From an uncultured archaeon (lineage in GTDB: Archaea; Iainarchaeota; Iainarchaeia; Iainarchaeales; CSSED10-239), in assembly GCA_964496765.1 (NCBI GenBank), contig CAZCAP010000003.1, positions 991 through 64,990 on the forward strand: 64,000 nucleotides of DNA, given 5' to 3'. Below, in pieces: positions 25,641 to 47,088 of the stretch. The stretch's first letter is position 1, and the number at the start of each line of letters is the position of its first letter. The notes beneath the pieces were generated by a model. The model was not told where the DNA came from. It worked only from the letters and a program-made list of their open reading frames with translations, and did not search any database. Made by a program: the position numbers and the translations under genes.

Positions 25641-26573
25641 TTAACTAATTTTTTCTTTGAGAAGTAGTTCTTTCCATTCTCTATCAACGTGTTCTTGTAT
25701 TTTTTTAATTTCTGCTTTATTCTTAAGAACTGCATTAAACTTTGTTTGTGTTTTTAGAAATTCTTCAACACTTTTTCTTTTTTCTGGTTTGTAATTTATT
25801 TTATATTTTCCATCTTCATATTCATACAATGGATATGAATTTGTTTCAATTGCAAGTTTGCTAATGGAAATTGTTTCATTAGTTGGTGCTTTCATGTTTG
25901 TTGGGCAAGCAGCAAATGCAATAAGAACACTTGGTCCTTTCTTTTCAAAAGCTTTTTTGACCTTTTCAAACATATCCCCAAGATCTGCTGGATTAATTGT
26001 TGCCACATATGGTATGTTATGAGCAATTGCTATTTTTGCTAGATCCTTTTGGAATTCTTTTTTGCCATCAACAATTTTCCCTGATGGGGTTGTGGTTGTT
26101 GATGCTCCCATTGGTGTTGCAGATGACCTTTGATTTCCAGTGTTCATATAACCTTCGTTATCATAACAAATATAAACAAAATTATGCCCTCTCTCTAACG
26201 CTCCAGATAAAGATTGCAATCCAATATCAAATGTTCCACCATCTCCACCAAAGGCCATGAATTTTATATTTTCTTTTATCTTTCCTTTTTTCTTTTGAGC
26301 AAGATAAGCTGTTTCTACTCCTGATATGGTTGCTGCTGCATTAGCAAATAAAGAATGTATCCATGGTGTATTCCAGGAAGTGTATGGATAAATAGTTGTT
26401 GTTACTTCTGCACAGGATGTTGCACTTGCAACAACAACTGGATCATCAGTTGCAGCAAGAGCGGTTCTTAGAATAACAGTAATTGGACAACCAGGACAGG
26501 TTCTGTGACCAGAAACAACCTTTTTCTTTTCATGTATTTTAAAAGCTAATTCTTTTGCATTCATAATTATCAT
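25641..26573 (-). CDS. porB: 2-oxoacid (probably pyruvate):ferredoxin oxidoreductase, beta subunit (TPP-binding)
   Basis: CPGCP cluster ligands and the TPP motif GGDGGTFDIG. It is the last gene of the gamma-delta-(HD)-alpha-beta string. Confidence 0.9.
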   Translation of the reverse strand: MIIMNAKELAFKIHEKKKVVSGHRTCPGCPITVILRTALAATDDPVVVASATSCAEVTTTIYPYTSWNTPWIHSLFANAAATISGVETAYLAQKKKGKIKENIKFMAFGGDGGTFDIGLQSLSGALERGHNFVYICYDNEGYMNTGNQRSSATPMGASTTTTPSGKIVDGKKEFQKDLAKIAIAHNIPYVATINPADLGDMFEKVKKAFEKKGPSVLIAFAACPTNMKAPTNETISISKLAIETNSYPLYEYEDGKYKINYKPEKRKSVEEFLKTQTKFNAVLKNKAEIKKIQEHVDREWKELLLKEKIS

Positions 26574-26577
26574 TCTC

Positions 26578-27732
26578 TTATTTTAATCCAATATATCTAT
26601 TCTTGGGTGCTTTATTGTTCATAACATCTACTATTAATTTTTCAATTTCTTTTTCATAAATGTCTCTTCCACCAAGTCCAAACACATAACTATAAACATT
26701 TGCATTTATTTTATTTCTTGCAAGAGCAATCATTACATCCTTATACACAGGAGGGAAAGAACCAGGTCCTTCACTTCTTTCAAGAATAATTATCTTCTTT
26801 GCTTTTTTTAGGCAACTAGCATAATCATCATAGAGGAAAGGTCTATAGAGAATAGGTCTAAGCAATCCAACGTTCTTTTTGTCTTTTCTTAATTTATCAA
26901 TAACATCCTTTGTGCTTTCAGCAGTTGATGATAAAACAATAATAATTGTTTCTGAATTACTTGCAAAATAATCTTCATAAATATTAATTTTTTTATTAAA
27001 TTTTTTTTTAAATTCAGTTGCTATTTTAATATAATTTTCTCTAACCTTAGAAAAAGCATCAAACATATCCACTCTTATCTCAAAATACGAATCCGGAAGA
27101 GCAAGAGAACCAATAGAAATTGGTTTCTTTGTATTTAAAAGATTATATGCTGGCTTATATTCTCCAATAAATGATTTAACTTTTTTATTTTCAAATACTT
27201 CTACTCCTGTTACATTATGACTTGTTATAAATCCATCCTGGCAAACCATTATTGGAAGATTAACAGATTCAGCTAGTCTTAAAGAAAACAAAGTCATTTC
27301 ATAGGCTTCCTGTGCATTTTCACAATAAACCTGCATCCATCCTTGATCAAGGCAAGACATAGAATCAGAATGATCACAATGAATATTAATTGGAGCAGAT
27401 ATTGCTCTATTAACAATTGGCATAAGAATAGGTAATCTAAATCCTGATGTAACACTTAAAACTTCATACATGTAAAGTAATCCCTGAGAAGAGGTTGCAG
27501 TAATTGCTCTTACTCCAGAAGCTTGTGCTCCAACAACAGCAGAAAGAGCAGAGTGCTCTGATTCAACTCTAATTATTTCTGTATCAACTTCTCCATTTGC
27601 TTCGTATCTAGCAAAAGTTTCAATGATGGGGGTTTGAGGAGTAATTGGATACATTGAAACCACATCAGGATTAATTTGTTTTAAAGCATAGGCAACAGCC
27701 TCCCCGCCAGATAATGCAAATTTTTTATTCAT
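26578..27732 (-). CDS. porA: 2-oxoacid:ferredoxin oxidoreductase, alpha subunit
   Basis: The N-terminus LSGGEAVAYALKQINPDVVSMYPITPQT is typical of POR/VOR alpha. Operon context supports the call. Confidence 0.9.
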   Translation of the reverse strand: MNKKFALSGGEAVAYALKQINPDVVSMYPITPQTPIIETFARYEANGEVDTEIIRVESEHSALSAVVGAQASGVRAITATSSQGLLYMYEVLSVTSGFRLPILMPIVNRAISAPINIHCDHSDSMSCLDQGWMQVYCENAQEAYEMTLFSLRLAESVNLPIMVCQDGFITSHNVTGVEVFENKKVKSFIGEYKPAYNLLNTKKPISIGSLALPDSYFEIRVDMFDAFSKVRENYIKIATEFKKKFNKKINIYEDYFASNSETIIIVLSSTAESTKDVIDKLRKDKKNVGLLRPILYRPFLYDDYASCLKKAKKIIILERSEGPGSFPPVYKDVMIALARNKINANVYSYVFGLGGRDIYEKEIEKLIVDVMNNKAPKNRYIGLK

Positions 27733-28307
27733 AATTTTTCATTTTCTATATTTTCTTTTTTTAAATAATCTTCTTTTTTTAAATATTCAATTAATTCATT
27801 GAAGAATGAATGGATTTCTGGAATTGATTCTAAATATTTTTCTTTATGATCTCTTAACATTTTTTCTGTCCAGTTCTCTTTTTTCCAATTCTCTTTATAA
27901 TCCATCATGTGGAGAACTGACTCTAATTTATCTATCGCTTTTGCAAATTTTGCTTCAATTGTTTTTTCTGCTTCGAATTCTATAAACAAATTATAATACT
28001 CATCTTTTATTGCATCAGGAAGTTTTGTTTTTAATATCTTTGCTCCTTCTGCTTCAGGAATTTTTCTGTTATCTCTTTCTAATATATGTATATCTCCAGA
28101 TATTATTTCAACCATATCGTGATATGCAAGCAACTTCAAAACTTGTAGCTCATTTATTTCTAATTTTGTCTTCTTTAAAAAATATTCAGCTAATAGAATG
28201 CAACTCCACGAATGTTCTGCAGAACTTTCGTTCCTATTTCCAACTTGAGAAAATCTATTAACTTCTTTTAATTTTAATATAAATCTTATTTTATCCAGTT
28301 CTTGCAT
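27729..28307 (-). CDS. HD-domain phosphohydrolase (YfbR/HDDC2-like 5'-nucleotidase family)
   Basis: H..HD..D pattern: SSAEHSWSCILLAEYF..LLAYHDMVEIISGDI. It starts 3 nt after the porD stop, and its stop overlaps the porA start (ATGA at 27729-27732). Confidence 0.75.
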   Translation of the reverse strand: MQELDKIRFILKLKEVNRFSQVGNRNESSAEHSWSCILLAEYFLKKTKLEINELQVLKLLAYHDMVEIISGDIHILERDNRKIPEAEGAKILKTKLPDAIKDEYYNLFIEFEAEKTIEAKFAKAIDKLESVLHMMDYKENWKKENWTEKMLRDHKEKYLESIPEIHSFFNELIEYLKKEDYLKKENIENEKL

Positions 28308-28310
28308 ATT

Positions 28311-28598
28311 CTATTCCTCAACCATTTTTATGCACTTAACAGGACACACCTGTGCACAAATTCCACAACCCTTACAATAATCTAGATCTGTTTTTGTTCT
28401 TTTAATTTGTCCTTTCTTAACCTCTGCGAGAATACAGTTTTCTGGGCAAGAATTATAGCACATCATGCATTGAATACATTTCTTGGAATCCCATTCTGGT
28501 TTCTTGTATCTCCAGTTCCCTGTTTTATTGTTTATGGATGTTCCTCCAGGAAGAACTCCACCAAGCATGTGCTTATCTATTTTAATATTTTTTTTCAT
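28311..28598 (-). CDS. porD: 2-oxoacid:ferredoxin oxidoreductase, delta subunit (2x[4Fe-4S] ferredoxin)
   Basis: Two CxxCxxCxxxCP motifs are present: CIQCMMCYNSCP and CKGCGICAQVCP. Confidence 0.9.
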   Translation of the reverse strand: MKKNIKIDKHMLGGVLPGGTSINNKTGNWRYKKPEWDSKKCIQCMMCYNSCPENCILAEVKKGQIKRTKTDLDYCKGCGICAQVCPVKCIKMVEE

Positions 28599-28604
28599 AT
28601 GTTA

Positions 28605-29153
28605 TCATTTCTTGAAATATTTGTGTCCCAATTTAAGGCATTCAATATTTGGTTTAACAAGATGTTCTTTTCCTTTTTTTCTAAATTCATCTTCTATTGT
28701 TTTAATAACTATACTTAATTTAATATCAAACAATTTGCAAAGAACTCCCAAAAGAACAATGTTAGGATTATTTCCTTTTGTTTTTTCAAGAGCTATTTTT
28801 GTTCCTGGAATAAAATATGTTTTCTTATTCTTTATTTTTTTCTTTATCTCTGGTTTATCTGTGTTTATAATATAAATTGAGTTATAATCTTTGGTTCCTG
28901 CAAGAGTATCTAAAAGGTTAGCATCAATAACAATAACACAATCTGGATTAGTAATTGGTTCATGAATTCTTATCTTTCCTTTGGATATTCTAACAAACGC
29001 CTTAACAGGTGCCCCCCTTCTTTCTGGCCCATATTCTGGAAAAGCAAGAACATTATATCCTGCAATTAACAAAGATTCTCCTAGAATTTGAGTAAAAGTT
29101 TTTGCACCAAGTCCACCACGACCAAAAATAATTACGTCCAGATTATCTTTCAT
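28605..29153 (-). CDS. porG: 2-oxoacid:ferredoxin oxidoreductase, gamma subunit
   Basis: FGRGGLGAKT..PEYGPERRGAP is typical of POR gamma. It is the first gene of the operon. Confidence 0.88.
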   Translation of the reverse strand: MKDNLDVIIFGRGGLGAKTFTQILGESLLIAGYNVLAFPEYGPERRGAPVKAFVRISKGKIRIHEPITNPDCVIVIDANLLDTLAGTKDYNSIYIINTDKPEIKKKIKNKKTYFIPGTKIALEKTKGNNPNIVLLGVLCKLFDIKLSIVIKTIEDEFRKKGKEHLVKPNIECLKLGHKYFKK

Positions 29154-32586: not shown

Positions 32587-33051
32587 TTATTTACAACATC
32601 TATAGCATGCTTCTTTTTTAATTGTTTTTATTTTTTTACCATCTTTAGTTTTTGTTTTCTTTGAAAGATAATCCTTAATTGCTTCATGTAGGGTATCAGC
32701 AGCCATGTTTGAGCAATGCATCTTTATTGGTGGAAGTCCTCTAAGACTATCAGCAACATTTTTGTTTGTTATCTTCATTGCTTCTTCTAGTGTTTTACCT
32801 TTTGCAAGATCGGTTATCATTGATGATGTTGATATTGCTGCCGCACAACCCATCGTCTGAAATTTAATATCTTTGATTATTTCTTCTCCCTTCTTATTTT
32901 TTGAAACTTTGATATATAACCAAAAAACGTCTCCACAGACTGAGTTTCCTAGTTTACCAACCCCATCTGCATTTTTTATTTCGCCCATATTGTGTGGGTT
33001 TAGGAAATGCTTTTTAACCTCGTTCGTGTATGTTGTATTCTTTGCATCCAT
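32587..33051 (-). CDS. iscU: IscU/NifU-like Fe-S cluster scaffold with a Cys-containing C-terminal tail
   Basis: Three scaffold Cys are present (GNSVCGD, TMGCAAA, KMHCSN), and the tail ends ACYRCCK. The ATG at 33051 follows the upstream stop by 2 nt and is preferred over the track start at 33081. Confidence 0.85.
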   Translation of the reverse strand: MDAKNTTYTNEVKKHFLNPHNMGEIKNADGVGKLGNSVCGDVFWLYIKVSKNKKGEEIIKDIKFQTMGCAAAISTSSMITDLAKGKTLEEAMKITNKNVADSLRGLPPIKMHCSNMAADTLHEAIKDYLSKKTKTKDGKKIKTIKKEACYRCCK

Positions 33052-33053
33052 AA

Positions 33054-34163
33054 TTAATCTTTCCCATCTACATATTTGCAAACAATATATCCATCTTTAT
33101 TCACAAAACAATCATTTGGTAGTTTGTATTTTTTATCAATCTTTTTAAGATCTTTTTCTTTATAACTTGATCTAATTATTTGAACATTCTTTTTTTTATT
33201 TATAAAGTCACAATCAATATATGGTTCTGCTTTCCCGATAGGTAATATTATAATATATGCTGGATTTGCTCTTCCCGAAAGGTTCCCTGCTCTAAACCAC
33301 CTTTTTATTTCAATTCCTTTTTGTATACTTGTTCTAAAACATTCTGTTCCAAGTGTGTTTGCACAATGATAAAGATAATGATTATCAATTCCTATTTCTC
33401 TTAATTTACTGAATAAGTTATATAGATCTTGTTTTTTATCATTTATTCCTTTTAGCAATACTGATTGATTGTATATTTTAATCCCTGAGTTAATCAGTTT
33501 TTTACAAGCATTTATTGTTTCTGTACTTAGTTCATCAACATGGTTGAATTGGCAAGACATTTCAACTTGTTTATTTGTTTTTTTCAAAATAGCTAACAAT
33601 TTTGTATTTATTTTCCCTGGGTCATACATTATACTCCTAGTCCCTATTCTAATTACTTTCACTGTATCCATTTTGTTTAATTTTTGTATAATGTAATCTA
33701 ATTTATTGATATCCATTAGTGGATCTCCACCAGTTATCAAAACCTCTTTTATCTCTGTATTTTTTGATATATAATTAATTGCTTTATTAATATCTTGGTA
33801 ACTCATGGCTTTGTCTGATTTTGAAATATAATCTTTTCTTATGCAATGTCTGCAGTATGCTGGACACTGTTTTATTGGTAGCAATATACACCTATCTTTA
33901 TACATTCTTTCTAGCCCATATATCCCTGTGTTTATTTGCCCAACCCATGGTCTAGTTATTCCTGTGTTGTTTAATTCTCTTACATCAGGAAAAAATTGTT
34001 TTTTAATATTATCTGATTTTTTAATGAGTTTTATTAAATGAGGTGTTAATTTAACAGGATATCTATCTATTACTTTTTGTAATTTGTTTTTTTCAGCAGG
34101 ACTAATTTTTGTATCTGTGATTTTAGCAAATTCATTTATGTTTTTTATATCCATAATTATCAC
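33054..34163 (-). CDS. KamA-family radical SAM protein (lysine 2,3-aminomutase/EpmB-like)
   Basis: The cluster motif CPAYCRHCIRKD is preceded by GLERMYKDRCILL, as in KamA-family enzymes. Confidence 0.75.
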   Translation of the reverse strand: MIIMDIKNINEFAKITDTKISPAEKNKLQKVIDRYPVKLTPHLIKLIKKSDNIKKQFFPDVRELNNTGITRPWVGQINTGIYGLERMYKDRCILLPIKQCPAYCRHCIRKDYISKSDKAMSYQDINKAINYISKNTEIKEVLITGGDPLMDINKLDYIIQKLNKMDTVKVIRIGTRSIMYDPGKINTKLLAILKKTNKQVEMSCQFNHVDELSTETINACKKLINSGIKIYNQSVLLKGINDKKQDLYNLFSKLREIGIDNHYLYHCANTLGTECFRTSIQKGIEIKRWFRAGNLSGRANPAYIIILPIGKAEPYIDCDFINKKKNVQIIRSSYKEKDLKKIDKKYKLPNDCFVNKDGYIVCKYVDGKD

Positions 34164-34168
34164 TTTTA

Positions 34169-35326
34169 TTATTTTCTCTTTTTTGCAAGAGGGGACATTC
34201 TTGTTAATTTCTCAACAATTGGTTTTATTTCAGAAAGAACATATTTAATATCCTCTTCAGTTGTTTCTATTCCTATCGTCATCCTAAGTGCACCATTAGC
34301 GATCTCTGGGTCCACACCTATTGCTTTGATTACGTGGTTTTGCGATAGATTGTGAGAAGAACAGGCTGACCCTGTTGAAACATAAATTCCTTTGAAATCA
34401 AGATGCAAAAGAATGGATTCTCCTTCAATATATTTGAAAATAATATTAATATTATTACATAATCTTTTATTTCCTGTTGGTCCATTTAATGAACAGTTAG
34501 GTATTTTTAGAAGTCCATCAATAAATATATCTCTTAATTTTTCCATTTTTCTAACATCTTTATCTTTAATAACATCAATAGCTTCTGAAAAACCAATTAT
34601 TCCAGGAACATTAAGTGTTCCACTCCTTAAATTGTTTTCATGCCCCCCACCATGCAATAGAGGAGTAATAGTTAGTCCTTTCTTAATAAGTAAAGCTCCC
34701 ACTCCTTTTGGACCATATATTTTGTGTGCATTAACTGTAATCAAATCAATATTATCATTTTCTAAATCAATTGGAACCTTTGTAAAACTTTGACAAGCAT
34801 CTGTATGAAGTACAGTTCCCTTTTCATGGCAAACCTGTCCTATTTCTCTTATGTTTTGAATAGTTCCTATTTCATTGTTTCCATGAATTATGGAAACCAA
34901 AATTGTATCTTTTCTTATTTTCTTTCTTAAATCATTAATATCAATAAAGCCTTCTTTGTTTACGTTAAGATATGTAACTTCGTATCCTTGTTCCTCTAAC
35001 CATTTAGCAGAATTAAGAATACAATCATGTTCTATCTTTGTTGTGATTATATGTTTTCCTTTACTTTTGTTTGCAAACGCAATTCCTTTTAATGCAAGAT
35101 TATTGCTTTCTGTTCCTCCAGATGTGAAGATTAGGTTGTAATTGTTTGCATTTAATTTTTGTTTAATTTTCTTTCTTGCAGTTTCAATATCCTCGTGTAC
35201 GTTTGTTCCAAAAGAGTGCATGCTAGATTCATTTCCATACTTTTCAGAAAAGTATGGTTTCATTTTAACAAAAATCTCTTTTGCAAGAGGTGTTGTTGCT
35301 GCATAATCTAAATATATTTGCTTCAT
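34169..35326 (-). CDS. iscS: Cysteine desulfurase, NifS/IscS type
   Basis: PLP-lysine segment NAHKIYGPKGVG, active-site loop STGSACSS and N-terminal IYLDYAATTP. Confidence 0.9.
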   Translation of the reverse strand: MKQIYLDYAATTPLAKEIFVKMKPYFSEKYGNESSMHSFGTNVHEDIETARKKIKQKLNANNYNLIFTSGGTESNNLALKGIAFANKSKGKHIITTKIEHDCILNSAKWLEEQGYEVTYLNVNKEGFIDINDLRKKIRKDTILVSIIHGNNEIGTIQNIREIGQVCHEKGTVLHTDACQSFTKVPIDLENDNIDLITVNAHKIYGPKGVGALLIKKGLTITPLLHGGGHENNLRSGTLNVPGIIGFSEAIDVIKDKDVRKMEKLRDIFIDGLLKIPNCSLNGPTGNKRLCNNINIIFKYIEGESILLHLDFKGIYVSTGSACSSHNLSQNHVIKAIGVDPEIANGALRMTIGIETTEEDIKYVLSEIKPIVEKLTRMSPLAKKRK

Positions 35327-35339
35327 AGGTTATCATTAT

Positions 35340-35642
35340 TTACTTTTTACATAGTTTGCAGTTTCCTCTACAGAAATTATCCTGATGTGTTTCTAGTATT
35401 CTAAGAATTGGTTTAATTGTTTTTGTATTTAATGAATAAATGATTTGCTTACCATCCCTTCTCTTAAAAACAATATTACAATCAGAAAGAACCTTGAGAG
35501 AATGACTAATCTTTGATTGTTCAATCTTTGTTATTGAAGATATATCATTAACACAGAGACTCTTAGAATAGAGTGCACTAATTATTACCCATCTTGTGTT
35601 GTTTGAAATAACTTTAAAAAAATGATATGAATTTGCGTTCAT
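35340..35642 (-). CDS. ArsR/SmtB-family winged-helix regulator with a C-terminal CX3CX2C motif
   Basis: HTH core LCVNDISSITKIEQSKISHSLKVL. The C-terminus is FCRGNCKLCKK. Confidence 0.75.
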   Translation of the reverse strand: MNANSYHFFKVISNNTRWVIISALYSKSLCVNDISSITKIEQSKISHSLKVLSDCNIVFKRRDGKQIIYSLNTKTIKPILRILETHQDNFCRGNCKLCKK

Positions 35643-41914: not shown

Positions 41915-41985
41915 GACTGCACAAAACCCCCTAATTTGTGCACTCGAAACACACATTTAAAAATATATTTATTCATATATATAAT

Positions 41986-43248
41986 ATGGATAAACAATAT
42001 TTAGAACAAATAGTTTTAGATCAAAAGGAAAGATTGTCTAAACTGAAAGATGGGTACCCAAGAAACAAACTTGCGGATTTATCTGATTTAATAAAACATA
42101 AAATAAACATAGTTGTGACGGGTCATAGAAGAAGTGGTAAATCCACATTTTTATTACAATGGATGAATAAATATTATAATTCTGATTTTTATTATTTAGA
42201 TTTTTCTGATGAAAGGTTAGTGGATTTCAAAACAACTGATTTCCAATTATTATATGAAATATTTTTAGAACACTTTGGAGAAAAAAATATTTTTTATTTT
42301 GATGAATTACAAGGAAAGAAATATGATTGGAATAAATTTGTAAATAGACTCTACTCCGAAGGGAAAAGATTTTTTATAACTGGTTCTAATGCCGATTTAT
42401 TAAGTAAAGAAATATCCACTTATTTAACTGGTAGGCATTTTGATATAACGATATACCCTTTTTCTTTTAAAGAATACTTAGGGTATAATAATTTTAATAA
42501 AAATTATAAATCAACATCTGGTAAAGTAGAAGTTATAAAATATTTTAATAATTATATAAAACAAGGTGGTTTTCCAGAAGTTATTGTTTATAAAACTACA
42601 GATATATTAGATAATATATACCAAGATGTAATAAATACAGATATTTTGAATAGGTATGATATAAAAGAGGATACTGAATTTAAAAAAATGACTTTGTTTT
42701 TAATATCTAATTTTGGGAGAGAATTTTCATATACTTCTTTAAAGAACAATTTTAATTTAGGCAGTACTCATACAGCTATAAAATATGTGTCTTATTTAAC
42801 AAATACCTATTTGTTATTTGAATTAACCAAATATGATTATTCTTTAAAAAAGCAGGATACTTATTCTAAAAAGATATACTGTATAGACACTGGTTTGGTA
42901 AATAAGATTTCTTTTAATTTTTCAGAAAATATAGGTAGATTATATGAAAATTTAGTATTTATAGAATTAAAAAGAAGAAATAAGAATATTTATTTTTGGA
43001 AAGATAAATTGGATTTAGAAGTTGATTTTTTAATTGTGGAAAAAAATAAGGTAGCTTCTCTAATACAAGTAACTTATGATATAAGTAATCTTAAAACTAA
43101 AGAAAGAGAAATAAAAGGTTTGCTTTCTGGATTAAATGAATTTAAGCTTAAAGAAGGAATAATAATAACAAAAGATTTAGAAAAGGAAGAGAAAATAGAT
43201 AATAAGATAATTAAGTATATTCCCATATGGAAGTGGTTATTGGAATAA
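41986..43248 (+). CDS. AAA+ ATPase, COG1373/DUF4143 family (complete paralog)
   Basis: Walker A GHRRSGKST, Walker B-like IFYFDELQ, a DUF4143-type middle region and C-terminal EVDFLI..LIQVT (degenerate D..ExK). The ATG at 41986, preceded by an AT-rich TATA-like tract, is preferred over the GTG at 41938. Confidence 0.8.
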   Translation: MDKQYLEQIVLDQKERLSKLKDGYPRNKLADLSDLIKHKINIVVTGHRRSGKSTFLLQWMNKYYNSDFYYLDFSDERLVDFKTTDFQLLYEIFLEHFGEKNIFYFDELQGKKYDWNKFVNRLYSEGKRFFITGSNADLLSKEISTYLTGRHFDITIYPFSFKEYLGYNNFNKNYKSTSGKVEVIKYFNNYIKQGGFPEVIVYKTTDILDNIYQDVINTDILNRYDIKEDTEFKKMTLFLISNFGREFSYTSLKNNFNLGSTHTAIKYVSYLTNTYLLFELTKYDYSLKKQDTYSKKIYCIDTGLVNKISFNFSENIGRLYENLVFIELKRRNKNIYFWKDKLDLEVDFLIVEKNKVASLIQVTYDISNLKTKEREIKGLLSGLNEFKLKEGIIITKDLEKEEKIDNKIIKYIPIWKWLLE

Positions 43249-43577
43249 TCTTCTTGAATTAGAACCACTAAGATATATTTAAATATATGTTATGCCATAA
43301 TATTTGCACTAACCTCCCTGTCATTGTCGCGAACAAGGGTAGGTGTACTAACCTATTTTTATGACGTGGATAATTTCATATTATTTATGGTTAGGGTAAC
43401 AATTAAAATCAGCTTTGTTACCCCAACAACTTTGTATTACTCAAATATGATTAATATTGCCGATATTTGTTAGTTGTGAGTAATACATAATAAATTAGAG
43501 TTTTTTATAGGGCAAAACCAGGAGCTTTTTCACTTTAGGGTAGAAGCTCCTCTGGAGCTAGTAATTTTCAAAATAAG
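43249..43577. other. Unusually long hairpin-rich noncoding spacer (candidate small RNA, terminator cluster or element relic)
   Basis: A 329-nt gap between convergent genes. It contains a 16-nt palindrome ATATATTTAAATATAT (43273-43288) and four stem-loops at 43312-43344, 43394-43423 (9 bp perfect), 43433-43487 (11 bp perfect) and 43518-43555, plus T-runs at 43356-43360 and 43501-43506. Confidence 0.35.
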
Positions 43578-44459
43578 TTAACTTTTTTTTCGTTTTAGAT
43601 CTAGTCTTTTGCTATATTTGTATTCCCCTTTGTGAATACCCATTTTTGTTTTCTTTTGATTATCTCTATATTTTATTACTCTATCTTCTCTGTATTGTTG
43701 TAAATCATTGGAAATAACTCCTGGTCCACCTATGCACCCACCCTTGCAAAAAAGAATGTCTATGAACTTGATTTTTTTGTTTTTTTCCATTTCTTTTACT
43801 GCCCATGCAATGTTTTTTGGACCATCTACAATTAACACTTCATCAGGAGATAAGATATTTCTCACATGCATTGTTTCAGCAACTGCTCCAGATAATGGGT
43901 AAATTTTTGTATAGTCATTATACACTTTATCAAAATCTATATCTTTTGTTTTAATATTTGATTTTTTAAATAATTTGTTTTTTTTAAAATAGTTTATAAT
44001 TTCAACAAGTTCTGAAAAGGTAATTGCAAAATCTATATCTTTTTTGTTGTTGATTGCTTCTTGTTTTTTTGCTAAACAAGGGCCAACAAAGATTCTTTTT
44101 TGGTTTGGAAGCTCTTTTTTTAAATATCTGCCCATTATAACCATTGGTGATGCAATCTCAATAAGTTTGTTTTTGTGATGTGGATATTTGTTCTCAATTA
44201 CTGTTATAATTGTTGGGCAGTTCGAACAAATAAATTGTTTTTTATCTTTTTTTTTAATGCTTTCCTTAATTATCTCGTGATATTTTCTATTAATAAGCTT
44301 TGCTGCAAAGGTTAGTTCTACAATCTTATCAAAACCAATCCCCTTGAGGTCAAAAAGAATGTCAGGATATTTAAAATCAACAGGAAAAGAAGGAGCAAGA
44401 AGGCAAACACACTTCTCAGTTTGTAATGTGTTAACAATATCTAATAAATCTTTATTCAT
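43578..44459 (-). CDS. [FeFe]-hydrogenase H-cluster-domain homolog, ultra-short form (no F-cluster domains)
   Basis: The full length resembles Fe_hyd_lg_C: LLAPSFPV, GFDKIVELTFAA, FICSNCPT (L1), VGPCLAKKQEA (L2), DIDFAITFSEL and FCKGGCIGGPG (L3). Confidence 0.75.
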   Translation of the reverse strand: MNKDLLDIVNTLQTEKCVCLLAPSFPVDFKYPDILFDLKGIGFDKIVELTFAAKLINRKYHEIIKESIKKKDKKQFICSNCPTIITVIENKYPHHKNKLIEIASPMVIMGRYLKKELPNQKRIFVGPCLAKKQEAINNKKDIDFAITFSELVEIINYFKKNKLFKKSNIKTKDIDFDKVYNDYTKIYPLSGAVAETMHVRNILSPDEVLIVDGPKNIAWAVKEMEKNKKIKFIDILFCKGGCIGGPGVISNDLQQYREDRVIKYRDNQKKTKMGIHKGEYKYSKRLDLKRKKS

Positions 44460-44466
44460 AGTTTAT

Positions 44467-45432
44467 CTATTTTATAAATTTATTATATTTACTCTTCTTA
44501 TTTTTTAATAACACAATTCTTGATTGTGGCACATCATCAATAATTTTAAAAAGCTTGGATTCTTTTTCAAGAAGATGTGCATAGTTAGATACATCAGTAA
44601 AACTTGGCATATTATCTATTTTTAAATTATTTCTTGATTCTCCAAGAAACATGTATGATTTTACTTCAAGAAAATCTGCATTACTTTTCTCAAATAGTTT
44701 AATGTATTTTTTAACATATACAGGATTATCATTAAGTCCTTTAATTAAAGTAAACCTAATTACTCTTCTTGTTTTTAATTTTGAAACAATGGTCATGGTT
44801 TTAAGTAATCTTTCCCAGGCATTCTTTATTTTTGGTCTATTTATTTTTTTGTGGGTTTCTTTGTCTGGTGCAGAAACAGAAATATATAATTGAGTAGGAA
44901 GTGCTTTTTCCTTTTCTAGTTTTTTAAACATCTTTGGTTCTTGCCCATTTGATACAAGGAATATACTTTTTATTTCTTTTTTGGTTTTAAGATATTTAAT
45001 CATTTCTGGTAAATGAGGATAGATTGTAGGTTCCCCAGCAAGAGATATTGCAACATGACTTGGAATAACTGATTCCTCAAGTAATCTTTTGTTGGAACCA
45101 TGATATCCAAAAAATCCAGAAAGCAGTTTTTCACGTTCTTTAAATAAACCATCAATTATTTCTTTTGGGTCATCAAGTTTTTCTTTTATTTCTGGATGTT
45201 TCATATTTTCTGCTGGTCTCCAACAAAAAACACAATTTTGATGACACCAGAGTACTGCTGGGGTTATTTGAGCACATCTATGACAATCAACGTTATAGAA
45301 TCTTTGTTTATAGCATACTCCTTCGTTTCTTAGTGCTTTTTTGTTCCATTCACATATTTCTACAGCAGAATGAGATCCAAAAATACCATAGTGTTTGTGT
45401 TTTAAATCTTTAAAAACTTCCTCTTTATTCAT
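44467..45432 (-). CDS. taw1: tRNA 4-demethylwyosine synthase Taw1/Tyw1 (radical SAM)
   Basis: HSAVEICEWNKKALRNEGVCYKQRFYNVDCHRCAQITP..WCHQNCVFCWRP matches the archaeal Taw1 N-terminal Cys pattern and the CX3CX2C cluster. The ATG at 45432 is preferred over the track start at 45519. Confidence 0.88.
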   Translation of the reverse strand: MNKEEVFKDLKHKHYGIFGSHSAVEICEWNKKALRNEGVCYKQRFYNVDCHRCAQITPAVLWCHQNCVFCWRPAENMKHPEIKEKLDDPKEIIDGLFKEREKLLSGFFGYHGSNKRLLEESVIPSHVAISLAGEPTIYPHLPEMIKYLKTKKEIKSIFLVSNGQEPKMFKKLEKEKALPTQLYISVSAPDKETHKKINRPKIKNAWERLLKTMTIVSKLKTRRVIRFTLIKGLNDNPVYVKKYIKLFEKSNADFLEVKSYMFLGESRNNLKIDNMPSFTDVSNYAHLLEKESKLFKIIDDVPQSRIVLLKNKKSKYNKFIK

Positions 45433-45567
45433 ATTTGTTTTCCTAGAGTAAATTAAAATAGTATTACTATATATAATATGATAGAAATTATTTAAAATAG
45501 GGTATGTTTTTAAATACATTTGTGTATTTATATATTATTTTATGGTGATAAATAAAGTGGTGATATT

Positions 45568-47088
45568 TTGAAAAAGAAAATTACAAAAACAAAGATTAAA
45601 AGACCTATTGCAAAAGTGGCTAGGAAGAGTTCAAAAAAAGTAATCCCACACAAATCTATCAAAAAGCATGTTTTAGTAAAGCCTGTTGAACATATTCCAT
45701 TGAAACCAAAACTTGAAAAATTGCACGTTAAGCATAGAGGACTTACAAAAACGCAAAAATGGTTATTTTCTGGGGTAGTGTTTCTTGTGATCATTATTAT
45801 ACTTCTTGCGTTTCTAATACCACCAACTACTTTTGTAAATCCAGTAATTGATGAAAATATAACCACTGATTCAATAGACACTAATTTTTCACCAATAGAT
45901 TCCAATCAGGTAATGAGTATTGAGCAATTTCAAAATATTTCTTTAGATCTTCAACAGAGGGTTTATGGTGAAATAAAATCAGAGCAACAAAAGATTATTG
46001 CATCACACTATCAGGAGCTTGGCCTTAATTCAGAACAAATAAATTCTTGTGTTTATTTAAATGATTTCACAAGATCTGATGTTAATGTTGAAAATTCAAA
46101 AATATTATTGAAGATCCAAAAGGACACATATATTGCTCCAATCCTTGGAATATCAGAAGCACCAGGTATGTTTGTTAATGGTTATTATTTATCAGGAGAA
46201 CCAACCTATGCTCAACTTAAGGAAAAAATTGATTTTGCATTAGCTGATAGCCCTATTTCTTGGAACTATGATAATAATAATTATGTATCTAATACAATAG
46301 CAAGTCCAACAATCACTATTATCTACAATGAAGACCATGAATTAATTAAAAATAAAACACTAGATTTTATTAATTACCTAAAAATATCTGAATCATTAAC
46401 ACCAGAGCTTAGATCTTTCTTTACTGATTTGTTTAAAGAAATTCCAGTTAATTATTATTCATACACATCAACAAAGGGAATTAATCTAATTGAGGCACTT
46501 GATATTCAGGTAATTCCTGTTATTTATATTGAAGGAGATATAAGTCAACTTCAGGTTATTTCGAATGTAAATAATAATGAATTGTTTTCATATCTTTTCC
46601 TAAAAACAGATGCTGGTGGATATATATTAAACCAGAAAATTGCCTATGATATACTTGTAACATCAAAAATTGATTCAGTACATCAGATTATAGATTACTC
46701 ATTAATTGCAGATAAGGATGATTATATAATTGGAAATAAAGATGCAAAGGTTACACTTTATTTATTCTCCAATTATGATTGTCAGGCCTGTGCTGATTTT
46801 GAAAACACAAATTTAAATAAATTAATGACTGACTATGTTAACACAAATAAAATAAAATTTGTTAAAAAGGACTTTATTGTTCGTGAGATGGCTTCTCTCT
46901 ATCCAACTATATTTGTGAGATGTGCACAGGAGCAAAATAAATATCTTGAAACAAATAAATTGTTATTTGATTTGAGTGCTGAACTTGGAACTGATGGATT
47001 TGTTAAAACTGTTATGGATAGACACCAATCAGAGATAGATTATCTTACAACTGAGTATCAAAAGATAATTGATGCCCAAAAGAAATGA
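45568..47088 (+). CDS. Membrane-anchored DsbA-like thioredoxin-fold protein
   Basis: A basic N-terminal tail, one TM helix (FSGVVFLVIIIILLAFLI) and a C-terminal thioredoxin-like CxxC (LFSNYDCQACADFE). The TTG start lies 4 nt after GGTGA (45559-45563). Confidence 0.6.
   Translation: MKKKITKTKIKRPIAKVARKSSKKVIPHKSIKKHVLVKPVEHIPLKPKLEKLHVKHRGLTKTQKWLFSGVVFLVIIIILLAFLIPPTTFVNPVIDENITTDSIDTNFSPIDSNQVMSIEQFQNISLDLQQRVYGEIKSEQQKIIASHYQELGLNSEQINSCVYLNDFTRSDVNVENSKILLKIQKDTYIAPILGISEAPGMFVNGYYLSGEPTYAQLKEKIDFALADSPISWNYDNNNYVSNTIASPTITIIYNEDHELIKNKTLDFINYLKISESLTPELRSFFTDLFKEIPVNYYSYTSTKGINLIEALDIQVIPVIYIEGDISQLQVISNVNNNELFSYLFLKTDAGGYILNQKIAYDILVTSKIDSVHQIIDYSLIADKDDYIIGNKDAKVTLYLFSNYDCQACADFENTNLNKLMTDYVNTNKIKFVKKDFIVREMASLYPTIFVRCAQEQNKYLETNKLLFDLSAELGTDGFVKTVMDRHQSEIDYLTTEYQKIIDAQKK

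Follow-up and report, generated by a model that had tools for sequence, protein, structure and literature searches.

What does a hydrogenase reduced to its catalytic domain do directly behind the gene of a radical S-adenosylmethionine (radical-SAM) enzyme? The question is raised by two adjacent genes, taw1 and hyd, on a 64,000-nucleotide (nt) stretch of DNA (assembly GCA_964496765.1, contig CAZCAP010000003.1, positions 991-64,990), which is referred to here in its entirety as the window. The first gene encodes 4-demethylwyosine synthase, and the second encodes a small protein, Hyd, that is an orthologue of Fm, the characterised [FeFe]-hydrogenase of Candidatus Forterrea multitransposorum. The conserved operon of taw1 and hyd, to which the gene of the characterised enzyme itself belongs, is real and apparently unreported, and homologues of hyd in bacteria that read UGA as Gly also lie beside radical-SAM genes. 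We infer, at a likelihood placed somewhat below even, that the subfamily is a low-potential redox module functionally tied to co-expressed radical-SAM enzymes, and not only a fermentative H2 valve.

The gene pair and its products

The core of the locus is comprised of the following features, given in coordinates of the window:

44467..45432, minus strand: taw1, leading gene of the operon, encoding the radical-SAM enzyme 4-demethylwyosine synthase (TYW1/Taw1) (TIGR03972; Pfam Radical_SAM and Wyosine_form; CHQNCVFC motif)
44460..44466, minus strand: 7-nt spacer ataaact between the taw1 stop and the hyd start (sequence TAG-ataaact-ATG)
43578..44459, minus strand: hyd, group E 'ultraminimal' [FeFe]-hydrogenase, H-domain only, 293 amino acids (aa) (Pfam, alignment to CpI, family alignment, AlphaFold2 and Foldseek, 54% identity to Fm)
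45433..45567, no strand: A+T-rich divergent intergenic region, presumed promoter region of taw1-hyd (sequence; arrangement kept in most relatives)

The original prediction, which was made from the sequence of the window, held that the 293-aa open reading frame (ORF) parallels the H-cluster domain of [FeFe] hydrogenases throughout. This is borne out by the Pfam model Fe_hyd_lg_C (E=4e-42; 145 bits against a cut-off of 22.1), which is matched over profile positions 3-245 of 245, spans Hyd residues 17-246 and is the sole Pfam domain in the protein. The translation contains all five segments that had been singled out (GFDKIVELTFAA, FICSNCPT, VGPCLAKKQEA, DIDFAITFSEL and FCKGGCIGGPG). The H-domain begins at residue 17 and is preceded by no N-terminal Cys cluster, in agreement with the predicted lack of ferredoxin-like domains.

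A phmmer search against the sequences of the Protein Data Bank aligned Hyd to CpI and related enzymes (E of approximately 1e-11 to 1e-13). In this alignment C300, C355, C499 and C503 of CpI correspond to C81, C128, C238 and C242 of Hyd, which confirms that all four cluster-ligating cysteines are present, and K358 and E361 are retained as K131 and E134. The active site is changed at four positions (T297 to C78, C299 to N80, M353 to G126 and M497 to L236), and only E282 is retained of the proton pathway (E279 to K, R286 to S, S319 to I). The position of the proton-relay Cys (CpI C299) is consequently occupied by Asn80, which gives an L1 motif CSNCP instead of TSCCP; this Asn and the Gly in place of the Met of the MPC motif had both been recognised correctly. 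The predicted [2Fe] pocket is made up of A22-P23-S24, S104-P105, K131 and E134.

An AlphaFold2 model, built with an alignment of 44 homologues, reached a pLDDT of 89.4 and a pTM of 0.89. Its best solved-structure matches in Foldseek are exclusively [FeFe]-hydrogenase H-domains (E of approximately 1e-15; TM values, normalised to the query, of 0.72-0.79). Across the 44-sequence family alignment I77, N80, C81, P82, S104-P105-M106, P127-C128, K131, E134, C238 and C242 are invariant, as is the N-terminal L-L-A-P-S-F. It is almost certain that Hyd is a full-length, stand-alone [FeFe]-hydrogenase H-domain of the group E family.

This protein family is already published, and Hyd is an orthologue of its characterised member. 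Group E [FeFe] hydrogenases were defined by Greening et al. (2024, Cell; PMC11216029), and they are the minimal [FeFe] hydrogenases of DPANN archaea to which the original prediction correctly referred. According to that study, group E keeps the H-cluster cysteines while its proton-transferring residues differ, and it is sister to group C. Purified Fm contained 4.2 Fe per protein, and when loaded with synthetic [2Fe]adt it displayed the H-cluster states in Fourier-transform infrared spectra and bidirectional catalysis biased towards H+ reduction; the role proposed for group E is ferredoxin-dependent fermentative H2 production. Even the closed genome of Forterrea lacks the maturases HydEFG, and an alternative maturation route was postulated (PMC11216029).

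The Forterrea chromosome CP045477.1 corresponds to our locus L003, and its 286-aa product P0016 is Fm. Hyd shares 54% identity with Fm over 291 aa (E=8e-116), has in common with it the motifs ICxNCP, GPCxxKKQEA and FCxGGCxGGPG, and groups with it in a neighbour-joining (NJ) tree. The group assignment is founded on this tree, on the similarity to Fm and on the NCBIfam scores, of which the best was that of the group B1 hydrogenase model (134.9 bits, far under the cut-off of 450), the group A model TIGR02512 giving 79.5 bits against a cut-off of 405.95. Both proteins are single-domain, and the two genomes have the same taw1-then-hyd order; the window stems from a different lineage within the Iainarchaeota-type clade, and its orthologue is known from sequence, whereas Fm is biochemically characterised.

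The active-site substitutions, which had been put forward as an unexplained peculiarity, are no sign of inactivity, because they are subfamily-wide and present in Fm; Asn80 in particular does not vary in the 44-sequence alignment and is found in the active enzyme. The 54% identity to Fm and the invariant pocket residues suggest that Hyd binds the [2Fe] part of the H-cluster and catalyses H+/H2 conversion.

CpI, with which the original comparison was made, is not the nearest multidomain relative. The nearest longer relatives in profile searches are Fer4-containing, histidine-kinase-linked sensory hydrogenases of group C type, in agreement with the published sisterhood. Like Hyd, group C sensory enzymes such as Thermotoga maritima HydS have no canonical proton-relay Cys, but their N-terminal Fer4, C-terminal 'FeS' (PF04060) and HisKA/HATPase or PAS domains are all absent from Hyd. 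With the group A enzymes CpI and Chlamydomonas reinhardtii HydA1, Hyd shares the H-domain fold, the four cluster cysteines and the equivalents of K358/E361 and S323-P324, but identity is only about 20%, the F-cluster domains are missing, the loops are shortened and no HydEFG genes are found nearby.

The upstream gene is taw1, as had been proposed: its product scores 360.8 bits with TIGR03972, over the equivalog-level cut-off of 317.95, and carries the Pfam domains Radical_SAM (PF04055) and Wyosine_form (PF08608). The longest ORF reaches 45519, and the N-termini of homologues favour the ATG at 45432. Since the spacer between the genes, at exactly the length originally given, leaves no space for a separate hyd promoter, taw1 and hyd are very probably co-transcribed, as was also expected.

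Conservation of the pair and its bacterial parallel

Conservation was examined in 80 genome loci that carry hyd of the window's subfamily, using one genome per species. When the window's Taw1 was searched by tblastn against these loci, taw1 was found immediately upstream of hyd and on the same strand in 19 of them, which are all the loci of Iainarchaeota/Diapherotrites type, Forterrea included. The order was confirmed by independent public gene calls and Pfam matches, and the spacers in these relatives range from -17 to +45 nt in our ORF calls. The reverse test, which started from Taw1 on metagenome contigs, gave the same picture: hyd lies downstream in 19/19 cases with at least 63% identity and room downstream, and one Taw1 of 51% identity was found without it. 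The exact gene of the window is also carried by the samples ERZ27248937 and SRR8437247. The pair was kept in all relatives with enough flanking sequence.

The pair also stays together where its surroundings change. It is kept in three loci in which the upstream block has been replaced (L008, L012 and L013), the genes 3' of hyd vary freely among relatives, and the order taw1-hyd persists where one or two small ORFs of no known family have been inserted between the two genes. In the closest relatives, whose Taw1 is 85-92% identical to that of the window, the insert is approximately 775 nt long and holds two tightly packed ORFs of 147 and 86 aa (L085 1018-1792, L086 4963-5737, L087 3331-4108 and L055 3149-3923), while another lineage has a single 192-aa ORF (L095/L106 4957-5535). 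None of these small ORFs gave a Pfam match, even at E<=10.

A literature search retrieved no paper that ties hydrogenases of group E to radical SAM, to Taw1 or to wyosine, and none of the three (Taw1 also as TYW1) is mentioned in PMC11216029, its supplementary tables left aside.

Bacteria contribute a large number of the top-ranking homologues of Hyd (47-53% identity), which originate from candidate division SR1/Absconditabacteria and from Gracilibacteria (L010-L058 and L079; for instance L079 10001-10870, and L049, which is CP006913.1). Their hyd genes contain in-frame TGA codons, 166/232 of which fall on alignment columns with Gly elsewhere, a pattern that is diagnostic of genetic code 25; where database translations show unusual Trp residues, UGA in fact stands for Gly. 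One of these public homologues is annotated as 'NtrC family signal transduction histidine kinase'. The bacterial clades are interspersed with two archaeal ones in the NJ tree, which suggests transfer of hyd between domains, at odds with a purely archaeal group E; coming from an NJ tree, this is a lead. A literature search found no mention of group E hydrogenases in Absconditabacteria or Gracilibacteria.

The bacterial gene contexts were established by retranslation with code 25, ORF calling and clustering of the neighbours. The typical order is uvrB, a radical-SAM methylthiotransferase of the MiaB/RimO family, hyd, a HemW-like radical-SAM gene and nusA. The methylthiotransferase scores 287 bits with TIGR00089, over the cut-off of 251, and its best equivalog is RimO, below cut-off; the HemW-like neighbour scores 146 bits with TIGR00539, also below cut-off. 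Other clades, including the closed RAAC1_SR1_1 genome, display the alternative order uvrB-x-hyd-rimO. Both arrangements were confirmed by independent gene calls and Pfam matches; rimO-hyd-hemW and hyd-rimO are distributed by clade, and the radical-SAM linkage is kept in both.

A MiaB/RimO-family and/or HemW-like gene directly adjoins hyd in 26 of the 36 loci with UGA as Gly, and a radical-SAM gene lies at most two genes away in 29/36, with both flanks occupied in 11/36; for five of the seven exceptions the sequence stops within two genes of hyd. The CxxxCxxC motif is present in 53 of 144 ORFs that adjoin hyd, as against 7 of 740 ORFs located at least three genes away, a crude background. These counts are not phylogenetically independent, and conservatively they represent two to three independent associations, with Taw1, RimO-family and HemW-like enzymes.

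Beyond the pair, the window's immediate flanks are as follows:

45568-47088, plus strand: thioredoxin-like (DsbA-like) gene, divergent from taw1
43249..43577, no strand: 329 nt of non-coding sequence 3' of hyd, with hairpins (sequence)
41938-43248, plus strand: AAA_14/DUF4143 ATPase gene, convergent with hyd

The divergent layout of the DsbA-like gene and taw1 is present in most relatives. The region 3' of hyd contains the hairpins AGCTCC-aga-GGAGCT and GGGTAACAA...TTGTTACCC and is likely the end of the operon; an Rfam scan of the window returned four tRNAs only and no family matching this region. In the Forterrea subclade (L003/L123 6865-10383, minus strand; L001, L002 and L007) an opposite-strand SufC-SufB-SufD-NifU_N operon ends at most 3 nt from the hyd stop. 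This convergent SUF operon is a trait of Forterrea and not of the window, where the AAA_14/DUF4143 gene holds its place.

What the hydrogenase may do beside radical-SAM enzymes

If Hyd works as a low-potential redox module, its H-domain would hold a [4Fe-4S] cubane on C81, C128, C238 and C242, and C242 would, by homology, bridge this cubane to a [2Fe] subsite lined by A22-P23-S24, S104-P105 and K131/E134. Hyd is devoid of accessory and relay clusters, and therefore its exposed cubane would have to exchange electrons with a partner protein without any intermediate. The task of Hyd would be to deliver the electron that reductive SAM cleavage requires, or to bring that electron into equilibrium with H2/H+, and the transfer to the radical-SAM enzyme could be direct or could proceed via a ferredoxin pool fed by 2-oxoacid:ferredoxin oxidoreductase (OFOR). 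We consider this reading the most economical because the recurrent neighbours share a [4Fe-4S] cluster that needs both reduction and loading for SAM cleavage.

In a stricter form, which is possible but leans to the doubtful side, the subfamily would consist of dedicated radical-SAM accessory factors, either H2/H+-coupled reductases or Nar1-like [4Fe-4S] donors, and not primarily of fermentative H2 valves. Their clients would be Taw1 in Iainarchaeota and, in Absconditabacteria/Gracilibacteria, enzymes of the RimO/MiaB family and of HemW-like type, and the gene would have moved between domains, settling each time beside a radical-SAM gene. The original suggestion that Hyd is a partner of Taw1 was a guess from one adjacency; it is considerably strengthened by the conserved gene order and by the bacterial parallel, and stops short of being demonstrated.

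A precedent for such a partnership is found in eukaryotes, where Tyw1 has a fused flavodoxin domain that archaeal Taw1 does not possess. In both cases a redox module is genetically tied to the wyosine radical-SAM enzyme, by an operon here and by fusion in Tyw1; they differ in that Hyd, with its putative role as a reductant, is an Fe-S/H-cluster protein on a separate polypeptide, whereas the module of Tyw1 is a flavodoxin with flavin mononucleotide.

Several points weigh against a functional tie to radical-SAM enzymes. The linkage is not family-wide. In Nanoarchaeota, Woesearchaeota and Pacearchaeota the order is lsm, RNase Z, hyd and glyS (glycyl-tRNA synthetase); in the loci of this RNase Z type (L059, L062-L065, L068-L071, L073, L074 and L076) hyd is preceded by 120-330 nt, and its neighbours are tRNA-related, not radical-SAM genes. 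A small clade labelled Saccharibacteria has hyd beside HPF-like genes or rubrerythrin. A second large and more distant set, present in many Patescibacteria, is composed of single-domain homologues of 258-270 aa with a variable residue at the C299 position. Four loci of this set were sampled for context, and in three of them hyd is overlapped at its start by a multi-pass membrane protein of 170-183 aa. At L119 (4001-8786) the gene of a 261-aa homologue precedes, all in one orientation, those of POR (gamma/alpha), POR beta and ADP-forming acetyl-CoA synthetase, which is a classic fermentation module, unlike the neighbourhoods of the window's subfamily.

Among the best 150 family representatives (50% clustering) no fusion of an H-domain with a radical-SAM domain was found, the long relatives being Fer4/HisKA sensory types or ordinary hydrogenases. 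In Iainarchaeota the pair is moreover part of a larger syntenic block composed of an RNase P subunit, an unknown gene, arginyl-tRNA synthetase, the DsbA-like gene, taw1 and hyd, with RadA and IscS/IscU further on; therefore part of the taw1-hyd adjacency could be inherited gene order. On thermodynamic grounds, the H+/H2 couple at environmental (nanomolar) H2 would be too positive for efficient reduction of radical-SAM clusters, so that Hyd could play an H2-driven part only if H2 were high locally or if ferredoxin provided the coupling. The bias of Fm towards H+ reduction (PMC11216029) is a further point against the tie, as is the absence of HydEFG from the window and, per PMC11216029, from the closed Fm genome.

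Two observations belong to these wider comparisons. The membrane protein recurs beside minimal H-domain genes in Patescibacteria, Nanoarchaeia and some Iainarchaeota as a 170-190-aa protein with the motif PQWLxGTxVN...FPSLGxLAxGxxFG...YFxPFIW, and its gene often overlaps the start of hyd (positions L120 3496-4008, L121 3487-4008, L122 3487-4038, L053 8405-8947, L048 9359-9937 on the minus strand, and L095/L106 6427-6957). It adjoins hyd in two Nanoarchaeia loci, comes after hyd in two Iainarchaeota contigs, has no homologue in the window and gave no Pfam match even at E<=10; it may be related to the 'hyd6TM' mentioned for group A in PMC11216029. P0129 in the representative library, a 4122-aa gene model unrelated to the window, combines seven Fe_hyd_lg_C plus Fe_hyd_SSU repeats with three flavodoxin domains and one FAD-binding domain; it probably represents either a tandem array of eukaryotic origin or several genes merged into one model.

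Competing explanations of the linkage

The strongest competitor is a purely fermentative hydrogenase that reoxidises ferredoxin reduced by OFOR and vents H2, the taw1 adjacency being inherited synteny or a convenient way to co-express two oxygen-sensitive Fe-S proteins that are biochemically unconnected. We hold this explanation to be rather doubtful, though a serious one. An OFOR is indeed encoded in the window, approximately 15 kb from hyd as the original prediction stated, and includes a ferredoxin-like delta subunit:

25641-29153, minus strand: four-subunit 2-oxoacid:ferredoxin oxidoreductase, about 15 kb from hyd
28605-29153, minus strand: OFOR gamma
28311-28598, minus strand: OFOR ferredoxin-like delta
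26578-27732, minus strand: OFOR alpha
25641-26573, minus strand: OFOR beta

Between delta and alpha this cluster is interrupted by an HD-domain gene (YfbR-like 5'-deoxynucleotidase; 27729-28307).

Fermentation is also the published view for group E, and Fm evolves H2 with a bias to H+ reduction (PMC11216029). The broad synteny of the surrounding block in Iainarchaeota, the Nanoarchaeota members without a radical-SAM neighbour and the POR and acetyl-CoA synthetase genes behind the distant homologue at L119 all agree with it. In the window's own subfamily, however, none of the 80 genome loci has an OFOR core gene (alpha/beta) at a distance of up to 10 kb from hyd, and L025 alone has a homologue of the OFOR gamma subunit, approximately 10 kb away. 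Inherited gene order likewise accounts poorly for three radical-SAM families flanking hyd in two domains of life, with the enrichment of CxxxCxxC proteins described above, and for a taw1-hyd pair that survives rearrangement on both sides. The idea that Hyd reoxidises ferredoxin, which was the first of the two original readings, therefore retains the support of the published work and of the POR context in a distant clade, but receives none from the neighbourhoods of its own subfamily.

Nar1 (NARFL, CIAO3), the model for the next explanation, is a eukaryotic factor of cytosolic iron-sulfur assembly (CIA) without hydrogenase activity; like Hyd it has an H-domain with four cysteines and no proton-relay Cys, and it carries an extra N-terminal 4-Cys ferredoxin-like cluster. 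Its functional associations are with Fe-S enzymes, among them radical-SAM proteins of the TYW1 and MiaB families. A Nar1-like Hyd would bear only the cubane in vivo and would carry clusters to radical-SAM enzymes, insert clusters into them or simply pass electrons to them in the manner of a ferredoxin, a role that we judge unlikely. It would fit the absence of HydEFG from the window and from the closed Fm genome and the family-wide lack of the proton-relay Cys, and it would fit the identity of the neighbours, which are the prokaryotic counterparts of TYW1 and CDKAL1: in PMC13255074 TYW1 and the MiaB-family protein CDKAL1 appear next to the CIA pathway as radical-SAM Fe-S enzymes of the eukaryotic cytosol, and a function in cluster transfer is given as a proposal for Nar1. 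Fe-S assembly genes are also at hand, as the SUF operon abuts the hyd 3' end in the Forterrea subclade and IscS/IscU are encoded 6-10 kb from hyd in many relatives and in the window.

Against this stands the finding that Fm, once it has accepted the [2Fe]adt mimic, functions as a hydrogenase (PMC11216029), together with the invariance of the [2Fe]-pocket residues in the 44 sequences. Asn80 is no argument for a non-catalytic protein of this kind, because it is invariant in the same alignment and present in active Fm. Hyd also lacks the defining feature of Nar1, its N-terminal ferredoxin-like cluster, and the SUF genes are convergent with hyd, not co-transcribed with it, and found in one subclade only.

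The iscS and iscU genes of the window belong to a row at 32587-35642 (minus strand) that encodes an ArsR-type regulator, an IscS-like cysteine desulfurase, a KamA-family radical-SAM protein and NifU_N/IscU. The KamA-family gene (191.6 bits with TIGR00238 against a cut-off of 199.2) separates iscS and iscU, which are directly adjacent in some relatives (e.g. L006).

HydE and HydG, whose genes commonly lie close to hydA, are themselves radical-SAM enzymes. Motif screens and NCBIfam searches of the 64-kb window revealed neither a radical-SAM ORF of HydE/G type nor a GTPase resembling HydF, as the original prediction had stated; the only window ORFs of at least 200 aa with a CxxxCxxC motif encode Taw1 and the KamA-family protein. 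HydE/HydG models were absent among the matches for Taw1 (E<=0.01) and for the KamA-family ORF, and among those for the bacterial RimO-family and HemW-like neighbours (E<=1e-5). That the recurrent radical-SAM neighbours, or paralogues of them, are stand-ins for HydE/HydG in assembling the [2Fe] subsite would supply the alternative maturation route postulated in PMC11216029, but is very improbable, since they belong to three unrelated housekeeping families without a HydE/HydG match at the thresholds used, Taw1 and the bacterial methylthiotransferase exceed the cut-offs of the TYW1 equivalog and the MiaB/RimO subfamily, a HydF-like scaffold was not found in the window, and three different chemistries are unlikely to converge on one task. 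Disguised maturases were rejected as candidates accordingly.

Taken alone, the hyd gene is nothing unusual in a DPANN archaeon, and should the favoured reading of a redox module tied to radical-SAM enzymes prove false, the finding amounts to one more group E hydrogenase. What is new is the conserved taw1-hyd operon and its radical-SAM parallel in code-25 bacteria, and these linkages bear on the physiology of group E, on its maturation without HydEFG and on the electron partners of an enzyme without relay clusters. If the stricter form of the reading is true, Hyd would be the physiological reductant or maturation partner that archaeal Taw1 has been missing, and prokaryotes would possess in it an equivalent of Nar1 or of the flavodoxin domain of eukaryotic Tyw1. 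If the favoured reading is true, the 'archaeal' group E subfamily would be common to bacteria that read UGA as Gly. It would then also answer the question of how, in ultra-small archaea and in bacteria of the candidate phyla radiation (CPR), radical-SAM enzymes are reduced or receive their clusters.

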